A DNA stretch of 51,129 bases. It comes from a phage. Under the pieces are notes generated by a model. The model was not told the DNA's origin and searched no databases. It saw only the letters and a program-made list of their open reading frames with translations. Below are positions 7,238-12,954 of the stretch, in pieces. A program made the translations under genes and the position numbers. Numbering within the stretch: position 1 is the stretch's first letter; every line of letters starts with the position of its first letter. The stretch lies in the sequence record PZ445411.1; one strand, written 5' to 3'.

Positions 7238-7654
7238 ATGGTTGATGAACTTTTCACTGACGCAGAAATCACGCAGCAAATCGTGAAATTAGCTCCACCG
7301 ATGAAACAGATTGATCCAGATTTAATGGTGGCATGGATTGACCTGGCAAAGGGATTTGTTTGCAAGAAGCGGTTTAAAGAATCATATCCTAAAGCGGTTG
7401 CCCTTTATACTTTGCACCTTATGACGCTTGACGGAGCTATGAAGCAAGAAGGGGAAAGCGTAGAGAGTTACTCACGGCGCGTGGCGTCATTTTCCCTGAC
7501 TGGTGAATTTAGCCAGACATTTGATCGAGTGTCCGGCGATTCAAGCGGAAAAGAGATTAGACAAACTCCGTGGGGCAAAATGTATGAGACGTTAAATAGA
7601 AAAAAAGGCGGTGGATTTGGCCTTGTGACTGGATTTCGGAGGCGCTGCAAATGA
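7238..7654 (+). CDS. head-tail connector/adaptor candidate
   Basis: 138 aa, RBS GGAGG; first gene of a 4-gene overlapping set between capsid and major tail genes. Confidence 0.4.
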
Positions 7655-8022
7655 ACTATAACGAGATCGCAAGAATGGCAACCGAAGGAATTAACTTCTT
7701 TAGTGATGGCAACGGTGAGTTTAAGTGCATAACGCAGCGTGGAAGCGTTGAAATCATCGGGGGCGAAGAAGTAGAAAAGCCAGAGATTAGTGTAATGATT
7801 AATGGTTTAATTAGATCACCCAAAGTCCGAGAGGTTGACGGCGAGACAATACGAGTAACCGATAAGTTGGGAGTTTTTAACAATAAAGTTGAAATTAAGA
7901 ACGGGTATCATATTGATGTTGATGGTGAATTATATGTTGTAGTTGAAGCAAGACCAATCAGACAAACCAATGTCACTGTTGCTTATCGGCCTATTTTGAG
8001 AAGGATTTCTGTACATGGCTAA
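7651..8022 (+). CDS. head-tail joining protein candidate
   Basis: 123 aa; start overlaps upstream stop (ATGA); synteny. Confidence 0.4.
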
Positions 8023-8851: not shown

Positions 8852-9514
8852 ATGCATTTACCAAATGGATCGCAAATTTTCGTTGAGAGCAATCGCGGAA
8901 GCGAAATCCAAGCAACAGCAGTGTCAAACGCTAAAGATCCTGTATTCACAGTTGCATCTGGTGGCACTGCGTACAAGAAAGGTGATTATGTGATCATCAC
9001 TGCGTCTTCTTGGGGTAAGCTGATTGATCGTGTTATGCGTGTAAAGACTAACGGTGAAGAAACAAGCGTAACTCTTGAAGGTATTGACACTACTGATCAG
9101 AACGTTTTTCCGTCTGGCGGTACTGCATCTTTTGCCAAAATTGATGCATGGACTGAGATCCCTTGCGTTCAAGATTTGTCTCAGGACGGCGGCGAACAGC
9201 AATACTACACTTATCAGTGTTTGGCAGACGACCAGGAGCAGCAGTTACCTACCTATAAGAGCGCGGTTTCTCTGACATACACTTTTGCTCACGAATACGA
9301 TAACGCGATCTATCCGTTACTTCGTGCAGCAGATGAGTCAGGCGCTGTAACGGCGCTTCGAATGTATGTTCCGAAAGCAAAAGAGATGCGTTGCTGGGCT
9401 GGTGTCCTTTCGTTTAACGAAATCCCGCAGACTACCGTTAACGAAATGGAAACTGTTTCCCTGTCTGTATCACTGAAAGGTCGATTCACCTTCCTACCTT
9501 CTCAAGTAGAGTAA
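8852..9514 (+). CDS. major tail protein
   Basis: 220 aa, RBS AAAGGAG; directly upstream of G/GT chaperone and tape measure; followed by a strong terminator. Confidence 0.55.
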   Translation: MHLPNGSQIFVESNRGSEIQATAVSNAKDPVFTVASGGTAYKKGDYVIITASSWGKLIDRVMRVKTNGEETSVTLEGIDTTDQNVFPSGGTASFAKIDAWTEIPCVQDLSQDGGEQQYYTYQCLADDQEQQLPTYKSAVSLTYTFAHEYDNAIYPLLRAADESGAVTALRMYVPKAKEMRCWAGVLSFNEIPQTTVNEMETVSLSVSLKGRFTFLPSQVE

Positions 9515-9518
9515 TAAC

Positions 9519-9543
9519 AAGGGGCGTTGCGCCCCTTTTTTTG
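9519..9543 (+). terminator. rho-independent terminator after major tail gene
   Basis: GGGGCG-ttg-CGCCCC hairpin then T7. Confidence 0.75.
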
Positions 9544-9584
9544 TTACTGTACAATCATGCTACACGATTCATAATCAATTCTTT

Positions 9585-9599
9585 TAGCAAAAAGTGCTA
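9585..9599. promoter_or_regulatory. palindromic box variant in the 5' leader of the tail chaperone / tape measure operon
   Basis: TAGCA-AAAAG-TGCTA perfect inverted repeat between CATAAT (9570-9575) and the RBS of gene 9614; TTGTTA at 9541-9546 lies 23 nt upstream of CATAAT. Confidence 0.35.
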
Positions 9600-9613
9600 T
9601 CAAGGAGAAAGAA

Positions 9614-9931
9614 ATGTCAAAAATGAAATTGACGATTGGGCCGCTTCCTGACTTTAAATTACCAGTGAAATTTGCAATGCCTAACGGAGAAGATCAAACA
9701 ATTATCTTCACAGTTCGCCACCGCAAAACAAGTGAGATTCACGAGCGCTACACGTCAGATACTCCAATGAGCGATGTTGAAATGATCACCTTTCTTGCTT
9801 CTGGTTGGAATCTTGATGATGAATTTAACGAAGAAAATATTAAACAGCTTCTTGATTACTACCCAGCAACAGCAATCGGATTAACTAGCGCGTACATGAA
9901 AGCGCTTGCGGGGCAGCGAGTAAAAAACTAA
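9614..9931 (+). CDS. tail assembly chaperone (G-like)
   Basis: 105 aa, RBS AAGGAG; ends at slippery heptamer A_AAA_AAC followed by TAA; lies between major tail and tape measure genes. Confidence 0.65.
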   Translation: MSKMKLTIGPLPDFKLPVKFAMPNGEDQTIIFTVRHRKTSEIHERYTSDTPMSDVEMITFLASGWNLDDEFNEENIKQLLDYYPATAIGLTSAYMKALAGQRVKN

Positions 9932-10242
9932 AAAGGGCGGTTTACCTGTTTTATCAGAAACCGCCGACAGATGCAGAACTTGAGGCTGTTGGCCTTACAA
10001 GGGCAGACTATGAAGGAGAAGATCCGCCAGAGGTTATATTTGATGAAAGCATGATGCAATCATGGGATATATTTTGCGCAATGCAAACTCAATGGAGATG
10101 TTCAGGCGGTGGCGCTTACGGATTTGATTATAATGTCTTGCCTATGCTTTTTGAGATTTACAAGGTTGAGGATCGCGAGATGGCGCTAAACGACTTGCGA
10201 ATCATGGAGCAAAAAGCACTTGAAATGATGCATTCAAAATAA
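9614..10242 (+). CDS. tail assembly chaperone fusion (GT-like) via programmed -1 frameshift
   Basis: The -1 frame is open from the slippery site at 9922-9928 through 10242 (ORF 10051-10242 is its 3' part); stem-loop 7 nt downstream of the heptamer. Confidence 0.6.
9922..9965 (+). promoter_or_regulatory. programmed -1 ribosomal frameshift signal (slippery heptamer + stem-loop)
   Basis: A_AAA_AAC at 9922-9928 in the G frame, 7-nt spacer, then 8-bp stem GGCGGTTT/AAACCGCC (9936-9943/9958-9965). Confidence 0.6.
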
Positions 10243-10263
10243 GCGCCTACGGGCGCTTTTTTA
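10241..10263 (+). terminator. rho-independent terminator after GT chaperone
   Basis: AGCGCC-tacg-GGCGCT hairpin then TTTTTT. Confidence 0.7.
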
Positions 10264-10281
10264 TTACCTGGAGGATTAATA

Positions 10282-12954
10282 ATGTCAGAACAATACGCAG
10301 GCTTGACGCTTGGGGTTGATGTATCTCAACTCAACAATGCTGTAAAGTCTTTGCAGCAATTCAAAAAGGCAAACGACGACGCAAAGGGAAGCGTTGAGAG
10401 CTTTGTTGATTCAGAGGTTGTTGCAAGACAAAGAGCCAAACAACTGGCTGAGGAATTGGCAAAGCAGAAGCAAGAATTTAAAGCAATTCAGTCGGCAATA
10501 GATCCGACAGCAAGCAAAATGGATAAGTTGCGCCAGGCGGCAACACAGCTTGATGCGCTTTGGAAAAAAGGAATTGTGCCGGATGATACATTCTTTGAGT
10601 TAGGATCAATTCTTGAGACGCAGCAAAATAAACTGATCGCAACTAAGAAGGCGCTAACTGAAGAAGGACGCGCGGCGCTTGAGGAAGCAAAAAATAAGGT
10701 AAGGGCAGAGGCTGAGGCAAGAAAGTTCATTGCGGCATTGCAGGCGCAAGCTGACGCAGCGGAAAAAACAAAATCAGAGCTTGTCGAAATGAGAGCCGCA
10801 CAACTTGGAGTTAGTGCAGAGGCAGCGCCATTTATTGCAAAAATGAAGGAGCAGGAAAAACAAGCCTCAAAACTTGGCGTTTCTATGGGGCAGTACAAGC
10901 AAGCAATGGCGCAATTGCCAATGCAGATCACTGACGTTGTTACTTCTCTTGCTTCAGGTATGCCAGTATGGATGATCGCAATCCAGCAAGGGGGGCAAAT
11001 CAAGGACTCATTCGGCGGTGTTGCTAATACGTTTAAAGCGCTAATGACATTTGTTACGCCTTTAAGTGTAGGAATGACGGCGCTGACTGGTGCGCTTGGT
11101 TATGCTGCATATAATGCATACAAAGCAAATGCGCAACTGAAGGAGATCACAAAAACCGTTCAGGAGGCAACAGGTCTTTCAGGTGAGTTTGCGGAGCGGA
11201 TTGCAACTGGAATCCAGGCGCTATCTGACAAGACAGGTGAGAGCGCCGATAATATCGCAAAGGCTTATATAAGCACTAAGGATGGAGCAAGCGAGGCTAT
11301 ACAAAAACTCGTCGATGTTGGATTTACCTATGACGAAGCAAAGGCAAAAGTAAACGAATACAAAAACGCATCAAGTTTTGTAAGTCTTAACAATGAAATT
11401 GCTGATCATAAAAACAAAGTTCTTGAGCTTGGCGATTCATGGTATGCGGTCTTAAAAGCAAAACGTGATTATGCTTCACCGTCCGGCGGGCTGTTGGGGA
11501 AAGAGCTTGGTTATGTGAATCCAATGCTGCAATTTGCGAAGAACACCTATGAGGATATAGGAAAGATCGTAAAAGATGCGAATAAGGATATGGCGGAACG
11601 AGCAGCACGCATCGACAGAGAAAACCTTTCCTTAAACAGAGTTCGAGCGGCTCAAGAGGCTTTAAACAAAGCCATAGAGGATCAGAAGAACGTAGCAAGG
11701 ACAGCAGACGAAGAGTTGAAAAAACGAGCGGCTGAGAACGTTGAGTTCAGGCGAAAAGAGCTTGAAGAGGCGAAGAAGGCGCAGCAGCAAAAGGAAAAAG
11801 TTGGTGGAGTTGTAAAAGCACCAACAGAGCAGCTTGATAAGGAGCTATATGTTCTCAAGGCGCAACTTGAAACTCTGAAAGAGCACCGAACTGTAAATGA
11901 TGTTATTTCACGCCAGAGGCAATCTTTGTGGAGTATTGAAAAGCAGATCCAGATCCTGGAGGAAGCGCAAAGCAAACGTAAGCTGACAAAAGCGGAACAG
12001 GCGTTACTAAACGAGCAAAAAGCAGTTATTGCTATGGCAAAAGAAAAGGCCGAGATAGGCGATCAGATTGTTTTGCAACAGAGAAAGAATAAGCAATACC
12101 AGGACGGGCTTAAATTCATTCAGCAAACATCAGATGCTATTGACGCTATGAACTTGCGACAGTCTGGAGCTACAGATCTGCAAATCCAGCGAGAGCTTGA
12201 GTTGAAGAAGTTGCGAACTGATTATGTTGCTGGCGGAGGTAGTATCGACGATGAAATTTATCAGCAGATGGAAGCAAAGCTGAAGGAGTATTACGCCACT
12301 GAAGATCAGCTTAGAAGTAACTGGATTGCAGGAGCGAAAAACGCATGGGAGGTTTACGGACAAGATGCAATGGATATGTACGGCAACGTGCAAGATATTG
12401 CAAGCGAGGCGCTCAACGGTCTAACCAACCAAATGGCTACATTCCTTGCAACAGGCAAGGCAAACTTTAAGAGCTTCGCAACGTCAATCATCCAAATGAT
12501 TATCCAGATGATCACAAAGATGGTTATCTTTAATGCCATATCTGGTGCGATTGGCGGTGACACCTGGACGATTGGTAGTCTTCTTAAAAATGTTGGATTT
12601 GCAACTGGTGGATACACTGGAGACGGCGGGAAGTATGAGCCAGCAGGTGTTGTTCATAAAGGTGAATTTGTCATGACGAAGGAGGCCACGAAGCGGATCG
12701 GAGTTGGAAACCTTTACAAAATGATGCGCGGTTATGCAAATGGCGGCGTTGTTGGCGGCACTTCATACACTGGCGGCGGAGTTTCATCTGGAGCAACAAA
12801 TCTTAATATTGGCGGGATCAGCGTTGATATTAACAACGGAAGCGATCCGAAAGGGTTGGAGACTGGCGTAAAAATGATTTTCACTGATATGATTAAGCGT
12901 TCATGTACGCAGGGTGGGGAAGTTTACGAATTTGTTATGTCTAAGCGGGGGTGA
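10282..12954 (+). CDS. tail tape measure protein
   Basis: 890 aa, long coiled-coil-rich central region, hydrophobic segment and Gly-rich C-terminus; canonical position after G/GT. Confidence 0.85.

Follow-up and report, generated by a model that had tools for sequence, protein, structure and literature searches.

A conserved A_AAA_AAC site and probable -1 frameshift production of a GT tail assembly chaperone in a T1-like phage

How does a tail gene that ends in GTA AAA AAC TAA relate to the 104 sense codons that stand open beyond it in the -1 frame? The question is raised by a locus in a 51,129-nt stretch of phage DNA, analysed as a whole and called the window here, which comes from a T1-like siphovirus of E. 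coli (Drexlerviridae, Hanrivervirus) with known phages 96-97.5% identical. The two frames are very probably joined by programmed -1 ribosomal frameshifting on the heptamer A_AAA_AAC, which yields a 209-aa GT chaperone. The chaperone frameshift site of T1-like phages is already known; being conserved and annotated in related phages, it is not new.

The two reading frames, their signals and the flanking terminators all lie on the plus strand, in a G/GT cassette between the tail tube gene (8852-9514, PF08813) and the tape measure gene (10282-12954, PF06791 and PF09718), which is the position set out by Xu et al. (2004), and homologues of lambda M, L, K, I and J come after the cassette and the tape measure gene. 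An intrinsic terminator after the tail tube gene (9519..9545; stem at 9519-9537 followed by a T run) marks the upstream edge of the cassette and is also annotated at the equivalent position in T1 and Sazh (MH729819). A second intrinsic terminator (10241..10264) directly follows the stop codon of T and precedes the tape measure gene, with counterparts annotated in T1, Sazh and Shelby (MK931445). A Shine-Dalgarno motif, AAGGAG (9602..9607), can be read 6 nt 5' of the G start codon, at the place where RBS features are annotated in Sazh and Shelby, and is the sole ribosome entry site for G and GT. The tail-module annotation proposed earlier is supported by the tube and tape measure genes that flank the cassette and by its two halves, which match chaperone and T-type families.

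The first frame, called as an ORF at 9614..9931 and read by standard decoding, encodes a 105-aa G-like tail assembly (tape measure) chaperone that matches PF08748 (Phage_TAC_4) along the full model (1-124 of 124; E = 1.8e-31, 109.3 bits vs a cut-off of 21.1). Its 3' end reads GTA (9920-22), AAA (9923-25), AAC (9926-28) and the stop codon TAA (9929..9931), and the original prediction, which had placed a slippery heptamer A_AAA_AAC at 9922..9928 in this context, proved exact to the base. The heptamer is in X_XXY_YYZ phase with respect to G, with the last two sense codons of G as P-site AAA (Lys) and A-site AAC (Asn), lies directly 5' of the stop, and is the sole such heptamer in the 43-nt overlap of the two frames. 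Its description as canonical or classical holds for the X_XXY_YYZ shape and fails for the strength, the motif being weak in E. coli reporters: against a background of ~0.04-0.07%, A_AAA_AAC gives 0.163% frameshifting when unstimulated, 0.189% with the IS911 stimulators and 0.739% with the IS3 pseudoknot, and the unstimulated values of A_AAA_AAC, G_GGA_AAC and A_AAG_GGU are about 0.13-0.16% each. Nor is AAAAAAC alone found above chance, with 18 copies in the window vs 22.4 +/- 4.7 expected; it is the surrounding context that carries the significance. Among window ORFs of at least 100 aa there are 48 in-frame X_XXY_YYZ heptamers, and two of them are followed by 100 or more open codons in the -1 frame: the site at 9922-9928 and one where the open -1 frame is that of the next gene. 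This second heptamer, A_AAA_AAA at 7598-7604, from which the -1 frame runs into the next gene, is missing in T1 and is therefore probably a chance occurrence, not a frameshift site.

No stop interrupts the -1 frame between 9889 and the TAA at 10240-10242, and the extension beyond the slip site (the T part, 9928..10242) comprises 104 codons and the stop. The 105 open codons to 10242 and the fusion of about 210 aa that had been predicted agree with a count from 9928 that includes the stop and with a conceptual GT product of 209 aa. Within the extension, residues 22-101 match PF08809 (DUF1799; model 2-80 of 80, E = 7e-13, 49.1 bits vs a cut-off of 26), and the match to PHROG 680 starts at residue 9, while PHROG 17368 (213 positions) matches the whole length of the 209-aa fusion (E = 4e-102). 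NCBIfam holds no family for either the G half or the T half, and a PDB sequence search with the fusion gave nothing meaningful, its best hit being an unrelated kinase at E = 0.41.

A separate T CDS is annotated in the T1 RefSeq record (ST39), JLBYU09, BEBK14 and others, as though T were an independent small gene whose overlap with G is incidental, and an ATG that would start a 63-aa product does exist at 10051. It is the first start codon in the -1 frame, the preceding 41 extension codons (9928-10050) containing no ATG, GTG or TTG; however, DUF1799/PHROG homology and third-position-biased substitution extend through these 41 codons up to the heptamer, and a product begun at 10051 would miss the first quarter of the domain. 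Substitutions relative to 13 relatives number 271/110/71 at -1-frame positions 3/1/2 in this stretch, which, judged by that pattern, evolves as coding sequence despite having no start codon. Homology and constraint begin at the junction, in a -1 overlap that offers the conserved part no start of its own, another of the features considered by Xu et al. (2004). The ATG at 10051 also has no well-spaced Shine-Dalgarno motif (GAGG lies 16 nt and GAAAG 2 nt upstream), and the internal T starts that have been annotated differ from record to record, as expected from gene-caller artefacts. We regard an independent T gene as highly improbable.

The conservation of the junction supports frameshifting and bears on two further explanations. 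The fusion was found by tblastn in 1147 phage records and, among the matches listed, all records that cover both halves have it in two pieces. T is in the -1 frame relative to G at 203 of the 207 related loci fetched, and the arrangement is kept down to about 28% amino-acid identity, conservation being a third point considered by Xu et al. (2004). An in-frame X_XXY_YYZ heptamer is present in the overlap at 133 of 151 unique junctions (A_AAA_AAC at 93, G_GGA_AAC at 36, others at 4) and lies directly against the G stop at 126 of these 133 canonical sites; A_AAG_GGT is used at one unique junction. The A run varies, being A5 in Shigella phage 2019SD1 and A8 in two relatives, L051 and L189, where G and T share one frame; these A8 loci come from Photorhabdus australis and IMG/VR. 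Such variation in homopolymer length speaks for a pseudogene or a sequencing error as the origin of the frame break, with one continuous GT ORF of another A-run length as the real gene, but the -1 break at the 203 loci comes from independent projects, platforms and hosts, the G_GGA_AAC and A_AAG_GGT lineages have no homopolymer that could be miscalled, and the stop is kept against the heptamer at the 126 sites; the probability left to an error or a decayed gene is close to negligible.

The fusion could also arise by RNA polymerase slippage on the A6 run, with one A added in some mRNAs. A6 is a homopolymer and the two A8 variants would fall in the range where polymerase slippage is known to occur (reviewed in PMC5009743), but six A residues are fewer than in the runs that are known to slip appreciably. 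The 36 unique junctions with G_GGA_AAC and the one with A_AAG_GGT carry tandem-slippage motifs in which there is no long run, which favours tRNA re-pairing over polymerase slippage; moreover, the heptamer never departs from X_XXY_YYZ phase, relevant to tRNAs and irrelevant to a polymerase, and a hairpin 6-7 nt downstream has the classic spacing of a ribosomal stimulator. Slippage during transcription is thus a very unlikely source of the fusion, and ribosomal frameshifting is the reading followed below.

The probable stimulator of the shift is a hairpin at 9936..9965, with arms GGCGGTTT (9936-9943) and AAACCGCC (9958-9965), an inner 3-bp extension (CUG 9946-48 with CAG 9955-57) and a 6-nt loop; the predicted 8-bp stem-loop starting 7 nt past the heptamer is exactly this one, separated from it by a spacer at 9929-9935. 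A spacer of 7 nt places the hairpin within the 5-9 nt considered typical of dnaX-type stimulators. The minimum free energy is -15.1 kcal/mol (z = -2.95), with equally stable folds in 2 of 200 dinucleotide shuffles, vs -5.7 +/- 2.8 (0/1000) and -6.3 +/- 2.8 (p = 0.002) for synonymous-codon shuffles of the same peptide. Paired columns in relatives hold pairing bases in 79.9% of cells, as compared with 35-51% when the register is slid, and the spacing is 6-7 nt in 25 of the 36 relatives' hairpins that are significant. The hairpin is under selection in the window's lineage. It is kept in most T1-like phages and gone in three relatives (L011-L013), in two Braunvirinae (L038 and L039) and in BEBK14. 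As an accessory it is conserved but can be dispensed with, and its loss is seen in several relatives whose heptamer is unchanged.

The frameshift may be real and the hairpin nonetheless a by-product of the encoded peptide (R-A-V … K-P-P, giving GGCGG/CCGCC with preferred codons) that does not stimulate it. The stem arms fall in conserved codons, GCG and CCG are common codons, and covariation counts are just modestly above those of slid controls. L011-L013 have the same peptide and A_AAA_AAC_TAA with the stem lost (-3.0 kcal/mol vs a null of -5.7), the natural counterpart of the stem in L011 being AACGCGCCGTCT…AAGCCGCC, and, of the 28 junctions tested in which G_GGA_AAC ends with the last two sense codons, none has a significant hairpin. 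By contrast, synonymous-codon randomisation argues for structure beyond what the peptide imposes, with p <= 0.002 for the window and p of about 0.005 for some 30 further unique T1-like junctions, and at stem wobble positions a base able to pair is kept in 19-21 of 24 sequences. A stem in matching register recurs in distant phages with different sequence and amino acids, e.g., GGCGGTGACC/GGTCACCGCC in Silvanus (MZ326867) and GGCGGCG/CGCCGCC in AV129, with double changes of UA to GC, CG or AU, and the two least canonical slip sites have the strongest hairpins, of -32 and -35 kcal/mol. A non-stimulating by-product is possible but rather unlikely, and we keep the hairpin as the probable stimulator.

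Two other candidate elements were considered, of which the first is rejected and the second lacks support. A GGGG at 9910-9913 could act as an upstream SD-like stimulator, but it is contained in the codons GCG GGG, for which relatives have GCT GGT, GCA GGG or GCC GGA; varying as it does at synonymous sites, it is not a conserved SD element of the dnaX type. An H-type pseudoknot, CUGU (9946-9949) with ACAG (9967-9970), pairs in 76% of cells and shows hardly any covariation; in 9 of 24 sequences the Thr wobble column does not pair, and the pseudoknot pairing competes with the inner CUG/CAG pairs of the hairpin. An Rfam scan of 9400-10400 at E <= 1 gave no match overlapping 9900-9990, the weak matches in the scanned region being confined to the two terminators and to 9764-9857 within the G ORF.

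In the mechanism that these observations suggest, ribosomes would initiate at the single G start codon (9614), and most would end at TAA 9929-9931 with the 105-aa chaperone G as their product. A small proportion would slip back by 1 nt on A_AAA_AAC (9922-9928), with tRNA-Lys and tRNA-Asn re-pairing on AAA AAA, and would resume decoding in the -1 frame at CUA (9928-9930) and continue to 10242. The predicted product is the 209-aa GT, i.e., the whole of G followed by the DUF1799 'T' domain, and its junction peptide would be …AGQRVKNLKRAVY… or …VKKLKRAVY…. The hairpin 7 nt 3' of the heptamer most likely raises the frequency of slipping by resisting unwinding at the mRNA entrance, and the adjacent stop may create a slow-termination window that gives the ribosome a second chance to slip (a 'shifty stop'). 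If lambda is a guide, the tape measure protein would be coated by G and by the G part of GT while the rarer T part of GT would recruit the tail tube protein, and a fixed, low GT:G ratio would be the purpose of the device.

The site had been matched to the G/GT frameshift of lambda-like tail modules, a likeness that stands for position and mechanism and does not extend to sequence. The window shares with lambda two overlapping ORFs between the major tail and tape measure genes and, further downstream, the homologous tail genes M, L, K, I and J; predicted for the window, as in lambda, are a -1 shift on an X_XXY_YYZ heptamer close to where the first ORF ends and a long product composed of all of G and a C-terminal T domain and made at a low ratio (Levin, Hendrix and Casjens 1993; Xu, Hendrix and Duda 2004, 2013, 2014, cited in PMC5009743, which also covers the function of lambda GT and its 30:1 ratio). 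The phage itself, however, is T1-like and not lambda-like: lambda G and T belong to PF06894 (Phage_TAC_2) and PF06223 (Phage_tail_T), whereas the window's G and T belong to PF08748 and PF08809. The window proteins have no match to PF06894 or PF06223 at E <= 0.01, and BLASTP of the window GT against lambda GT gives E = 2.2, i.e., no detectable pairwise similarity. Given these different families and the lack of pairwise similarity, the likeness to lambda is one of position and mechanism, not of sequence. The slip sites differ as well. The lambda heptamer, G_GGA_AAG at 10109-10115, is separated from the G stop by five further sense codons, whereas A_AAA_AAC abuts the stop in the window, and in E. 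coli reporters stimulators act 20-50 times more strongly on the lambda-type heptamer (0.28% unstimulated and 43% with a strong pseudoknot) than on A_AAA_AAC. Because A_AAA_AAC is weak in reporters, the GT yield is expected to be below lambda's roughly 3% unless local context helps; the conserved hairpin 7 nt downstream is a trait of the window's lineage and a further difference from lambda.

Two systems of E. coli itself resemble the site in other ways. The dnaX frameshift shares an A-rich heptamer, tRNA-Lys in the P site and a simple hairpin a few nucleotides downstream, but its heptamer is A_AAA_AAG, with AAG in the A site in place of the window's AAC; it has an upstream SD-like stimulator, whereas the window has no conserved one, and its frameshift product is the shorter of the two, whereas that of the window, GT, is the longer. 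The AAG A-site codon of dnaX supports highly efficient shifting, about 50%. In IS1, the same A_AAA_AAC directs proven low-level -1 frameshifting between insA and insB' in E. coli and gives a fusion protein (Sharma et al. 2014, PMC4066793); the IS1 product is a transposase made with no established stimulator, whereas the window encodes a phage chaperone with a hairpin and an adjacent stop. Between the annotated T1-like chaperone frameshift of Sazh, Shelby and Silvanus and the window site there is no difference of substance: they share the gene pair, its Pfam families, the place between the tube gene and the tape measure gene, and the terminators on either side, and Sazh has the identical GTA AAA AAC TAA and the identical GGCGGTTT/AAACCGCC stem.

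In a set of about 150 distinct junctions, heptamers with weak activity in E. coli are kept against the stop while the hairpin comes and goes. This combination offers a convenient natural series for the way in which stop context and hairpin tune low-level frameshifting. A more speculative reading, to which we give limited credence, is that the Phage_TAC_4/DUF1799 family has a cassette of its own, in which a weak heptamer is combined with an obligatorily abutting stop, slow termination at which is the main stimulator, and with a hairpin tuned in each lineage. If so, gain or loss of the hairpin in a lineage would tune the GT:G ratio, and the cassette would be a termination-coupled variant of G/GT, mechanistically unlike that of lambda, which has an intrinsically strong heptamer and a stop five codons further on.

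Annotation of this site is uneven. A joined CDS labelled 'frameshift product' is given in the Sazh, Shelby and Silvanus records, and the genome papers on the T1-like phages Stevie (PMC4319613) and U136B (PMC8104045) mention the frameshift; searches of the accessible literature on T1-like phages found annotation statements only and no protein-level evidence for GT. The nearest relatives (damhaus, JLBYU09 and KarlJaspers) and the T1 RefSeq record do not annotate the GT fusion and list either G alone or two ORFs, and the two ORFs carry the label 'tail length tape measure protein' in PHROG as well as in RefSeq. The site confirms the tail module and fits the stoichiometry device expected in it, and the correct annotation is very probably a 105-aa chaperone with a 209-aa -1 frameshift product, the 63-aa ORF being spurious.

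The window is a T1-like siphovirus genome, complete or nearly so (Drexlerviridae, Tempevirinae, Hanrivervirus). Over its first 25 kb it shares ~96-97% identity with phages slyngel and egaa; across the G/GT region, identity to KarlJaspers, aaroes, damhaus and vojen is 96-97.5%. The tail tube gene (8852-9514; PF08813, Pfam E = 1.5e-64) is followed by G, the tail assembly chaperone ORF (9614-9931; Phage_TAC_4, PF08748, full model, E = 1.8e-31), its -1 frame extension T, of which residues 22-101 match DUF1799 (PF08809, E = 6.8e-13), and the tape measure gene (10282-12954; PF06791 and PF09718, E = 3.6e-35 and 6.7e-22), after which come homologues of lambda M, L, K, I and J. The G/GT cassette lies between two strong plus-strand intrinsic terminators. 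The first follows the tube gene (9519-9545; 9519-9537, then a T run) and the second precedes the tape measure gene (10241-10264; 10241-10258, then a T run), a layout also annotated in T1, Sazh and Shelby. Expression of all downstream tail genes would need read-through.

The 105-aa G ORF, on the plus strand like all elements of the site, has a Shine-Dalgarno sequence, AAGGAG, at 9602-9607 and ends GTA AAA AAC TAA, with the slip heptamer A_AAA_AAC (9922-9928) in the X_XXY_YYZ phase and the stop codon at 9929-9931. From 9889 the -1 frame runs without a stop to a TAA at 10240-10242, adding 104 residues post-shift to yield the 209-aa fusion, GT. A hairpin with arms GGCGGTTT (9936-9943) and AAACCGCC (9958-9965) lies 7 nt 3' of the heptamer; three inner pairs (CUG/CAG) lengthen its stem, its loop is 6 nt, its MFE is -15.1 kcal/mol (z = -2.95 vs dinucleotide shuffles), and it is retained unchanged when a 121-nt context is folded. 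The original prediction described ORF end, heptamer, open -1 frame and stem-loop exactly as they stand in the window, and its reading of them as a -1 frameshift signal for GT is supported: both the kind of recoding site and the phage group are known, and the site is essentially the same as ones annotated earlier. Production of GT by -1 ribosomal frameshifting is very probable.

Translation of T appears to depend on G. The -1 frame has its earliest ATG, GTG or TTG at 10051, 41 codons past the junction, and no well-placed Shine-Dalgarno sequence serves it; T family homology begins ahead of it, at extension residue 9 (PHROG 680) or 22 (DUF1799), and the peptide LKRAVYLFYQKPPT… is conserved starting with the first codon 3' of the heptamer. 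Within these 41 start-less codons, substitutions relative to 13 relatives number 271, 110 and 71 at -1-frame codon positions 3, 1 and 2, a bias which argues that the segment is translated in the -1 frame. Judged from sequence, T would not be translatable on its own, with entry only from G.

The heptamer alone is not above chance (18 copies of AAAAAAC in the window vs 22.4 expected), but its context is. Among in-frame X_XXY_YYZ heptamers in window ORFs of at least 100 aa, the -1 frame stays open for at least 100 codons in 2 of 48: the slip site at 9922-9928 and one whose -1 frame is the next gene's frame. An A_AAA_AAA at 7598-7604 is in phase in ORF 7238-7654, 15 codons ahead of its stop; a slip there would join two head-tail proteins, the -1 frame being that of the next gene (7651-8022). 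It is probably fortuitous, since the corresponding position in T1 lacks a slippery run.

A tblastn search with the fusion matched 1147 phage records; among the matches listed, every record spanning both halves matched in two pieces. Loci containing both halves were fetched from phage records, IMG/VR contigs and prophages (Enterobacterales, Pseudomonas, Burkholderiales, Xanthomonadales and others), 207 in all, and at 203 of them T is in the -1 frame relative to G. The four exceptions are one A5 run, a low-quality contig whose frame is broken in several places and two A8 loci. In the first, L010 (Shigella phage 2019SD1, MT360681; 1800-1830, equivalent to window 9920-9931), A5 replaces A6 (GTAAAAACTAA), G continues in the +1 frame, reaching 122 aa, and leaves the T frame unreachable; a sequencing error in the homopolymer is the probable cause, the phage being otherwise 98% identical. 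The A8 runs (GAA AAA AAA CTA/CTG) of L051 (Photorhabdus australis DSM 17609 prophage, ~1440-1460) and L189 (IMGVR_UViG_2619619144_000009, ~1520-1540), 2 of 207 loci, put G and T in one frame without a stop. They reflect a homopolymer error or else a true in-frame GT gene, in which case production of G would require a +1 shift or transcriptional slippage.

A search of the G/T overlap in 151 unique junction sequences found A_AAA_AAC in 93, G_GGA_AAC in 36, A_AAA_AAA in 2, A_AAG_GGT and A_AAA_AAT in 1 each, and no canonical heptamer in 18. The stop directly follows the heptamer in 126 of 133 canonical junctions and comes one codon later in the other 7. Sixteen of the 18 non-canonical junctions, from Klebsiella weberviruses, Sf12-like phages and KPAJ1, have an A_AAR tetramer, one codon and a stop; the remaining two are L068 and L127. 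Such differing tandem-slippage motifs at one position, some homopolymer-free, favour ribosomal over transcriptional slippage and speak against sequencing error. Loci lacking an X_XXY_YYZ heptamer (L004, L041, L167-L186, the Klebsiella weberviruses; L163-L165; L045) read GCA AAA GTY TAA, GCA AAG GTC TAA or CAA AAG CGC TAA. Shelby carries a joined frameshift CDS despite belonging to a lineage with the tetramer.

The hairpin bears marks of selection. When the 48 nt 3' of the heptamer were folded after synonymous reshuffling of the -1 frame, the encoded peptide unchanged, window codon usage gave -5.7 +/- 2.8, with 0 of 1000 attaining -15.1, and permuting codons inside the T ORF gave -6.3 +/- 2.8 (p = 0.002). 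In a gap-free alignment of 24 distinct junctions, the proposed 12-pair structure forms in 79.9% of cells vs 35-51% when the 3' partner is slid by 1-3 columns. Wobble positions in the stem keep to pairing bases (Ala GCG 19/24, Pro CCG 21/24, Arg NGG 19/24), a Lys wobble switches between A and G, either of which pairs with U, and the three inner U-A pairs of the outer stem become G-C, C-G or A-U in distant phages. Silvanus (10 bp, GGCGGTGACC/GGTCACCGCC) and AV129 (7 bp, GGCGGCG/CGCCGCC) form stems in the same register from other amino acids. The synonymous-shuffle test, run on 133 distinct junctions sorted by their final seven bases ahead of the stop, was significant (p <= 0.05) in 36, including 31 of 84 with A_AAA_AAC (37%), nearly all from T1-like enteric phages, and 0 of 28 with G_GGA_AAC; the first paired base lies 6 or 7 nt past the heptamer in 25 of the 36. 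Close relatives L011-L013 keep the peptide and A_AAA_AAC_TAA with the stem lost (-3.0 kcal/mol). These IMG/VR 3300045988 contigs have a possible 7-bp stem, AGCCGCC…GGCGGTT, seen by eye ~28-60 nt past the heptamer, a start beyond classical stimulator distance. The two least canonical slip sites, GGG AAA ATC TAG in L068 (Candidatus Nitrotoga sp. M5) and GGA AAA TTGA in L127 (Stenotrophobium MAG), are followed by hairpins stronger than any others in the set (-32.4 and -35.1 kcal/mol; p = 0.005), as if structure made up for a poor slip site. We take the hairpin to be a candidate tuning element that is under selection yet dispensable; that it stimulates the frameshift is fairly likely.

In E. coli reporters with no stimulator, IS911 stimulators or the IS3 pseudoknot, frameshifting reaches 0.163%, 0.189% and 0.739% on A_AAA_AAC, 0.164%, 0.222% and 0.888% on G_GGA_AAC, and 0.134%, 0.368% and 1.598% on A_AAG_GGU, against a background of ~0.04-0.07%; the values are 0.277%, 3.80% and 43.0% on lambda-type G_GGA_AAG and 0.291%, 4.26% and 39.0% on A_AAA_AAG (Sharma et al., 2014; PMC4066793). 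The Phage_TAC_4/DUF1799 heptamers are thus of canonical form yet shift poorly in E. coli; IS1 uses the same A_AAA_AAC for proven low-level frameshifting (PMC4066793). The AAG versions, one base away, are never used among the 151 unique junctions, and the stop is kept against the heptamer, which together suggest that selection favours a very low GT:G ratio or that slow termination contributes. The latter recalls the classical "shifty stop" idea, reportedly due to Weiss et al. in 1987. That the abutting stop contributes to frameshifting is doubtful.

The proposed match to lambda G/GT holds for position and mechanism, with homologous M, L, K, I and J downstream, but not for the chaperone sequences: lambda G and T belong to other families (PF06894, PF06223) with no detectable similarity to the window proteins. 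Lambda (NC_001416) slips on G_GGA_AAG (10109-10115), with five more sense codons before the G stop. G-T frameshifting is widespread among long-tailed phages; in lambda, where the ratio is 30:1, the tape measure protein is bound by G both alone and within GT, and the tube protein by T (PMC5009743).

In practice the result matters mainly for annotation, which should list a 105-aa G and a 209-aa GT made via a -1 shift at 9922-9928. The conceptual fusion matches positions 1-210 of 213 of PHROG 17368 (E = 4e-102), so full-length fusions are already deposited. The T1-like phages Sazh, Shelby and Silvanus carry a joined CDS, the Silvanus record naming a "CPT-T1 tape measure chaperone frameshift product", and a frameshift is mentioned for Stevie (PMC4319613) and U136B (PMC8104045); GT annotation is absent from many other records, T1 RefSeq, damhaus and JLBYU09 among them. 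The site is not covered by any Rfam family, and no protein-level demonstration of GT for T1-like phages was found in the literature. Relatives' RefSeq and PHROG records (for example NC_005833 ST40/ST39, NC_049826; phrog_569, 680, 17368) call both chaperone ORFs "tail length tape measure protein", a propagated mis-annotation. T often appears there as its own ORF of 56-103 aa, with starts that differ between records, and some Danish isolates label G "TfmS". Finally, 19-22 deposited records of this E. coli/Shigella-type group bear the name "Campylobacter phage" and give Campylobacter jejuni as host, unexpected for T1-like enteric phages; contamination or mislabelling may be responsible.
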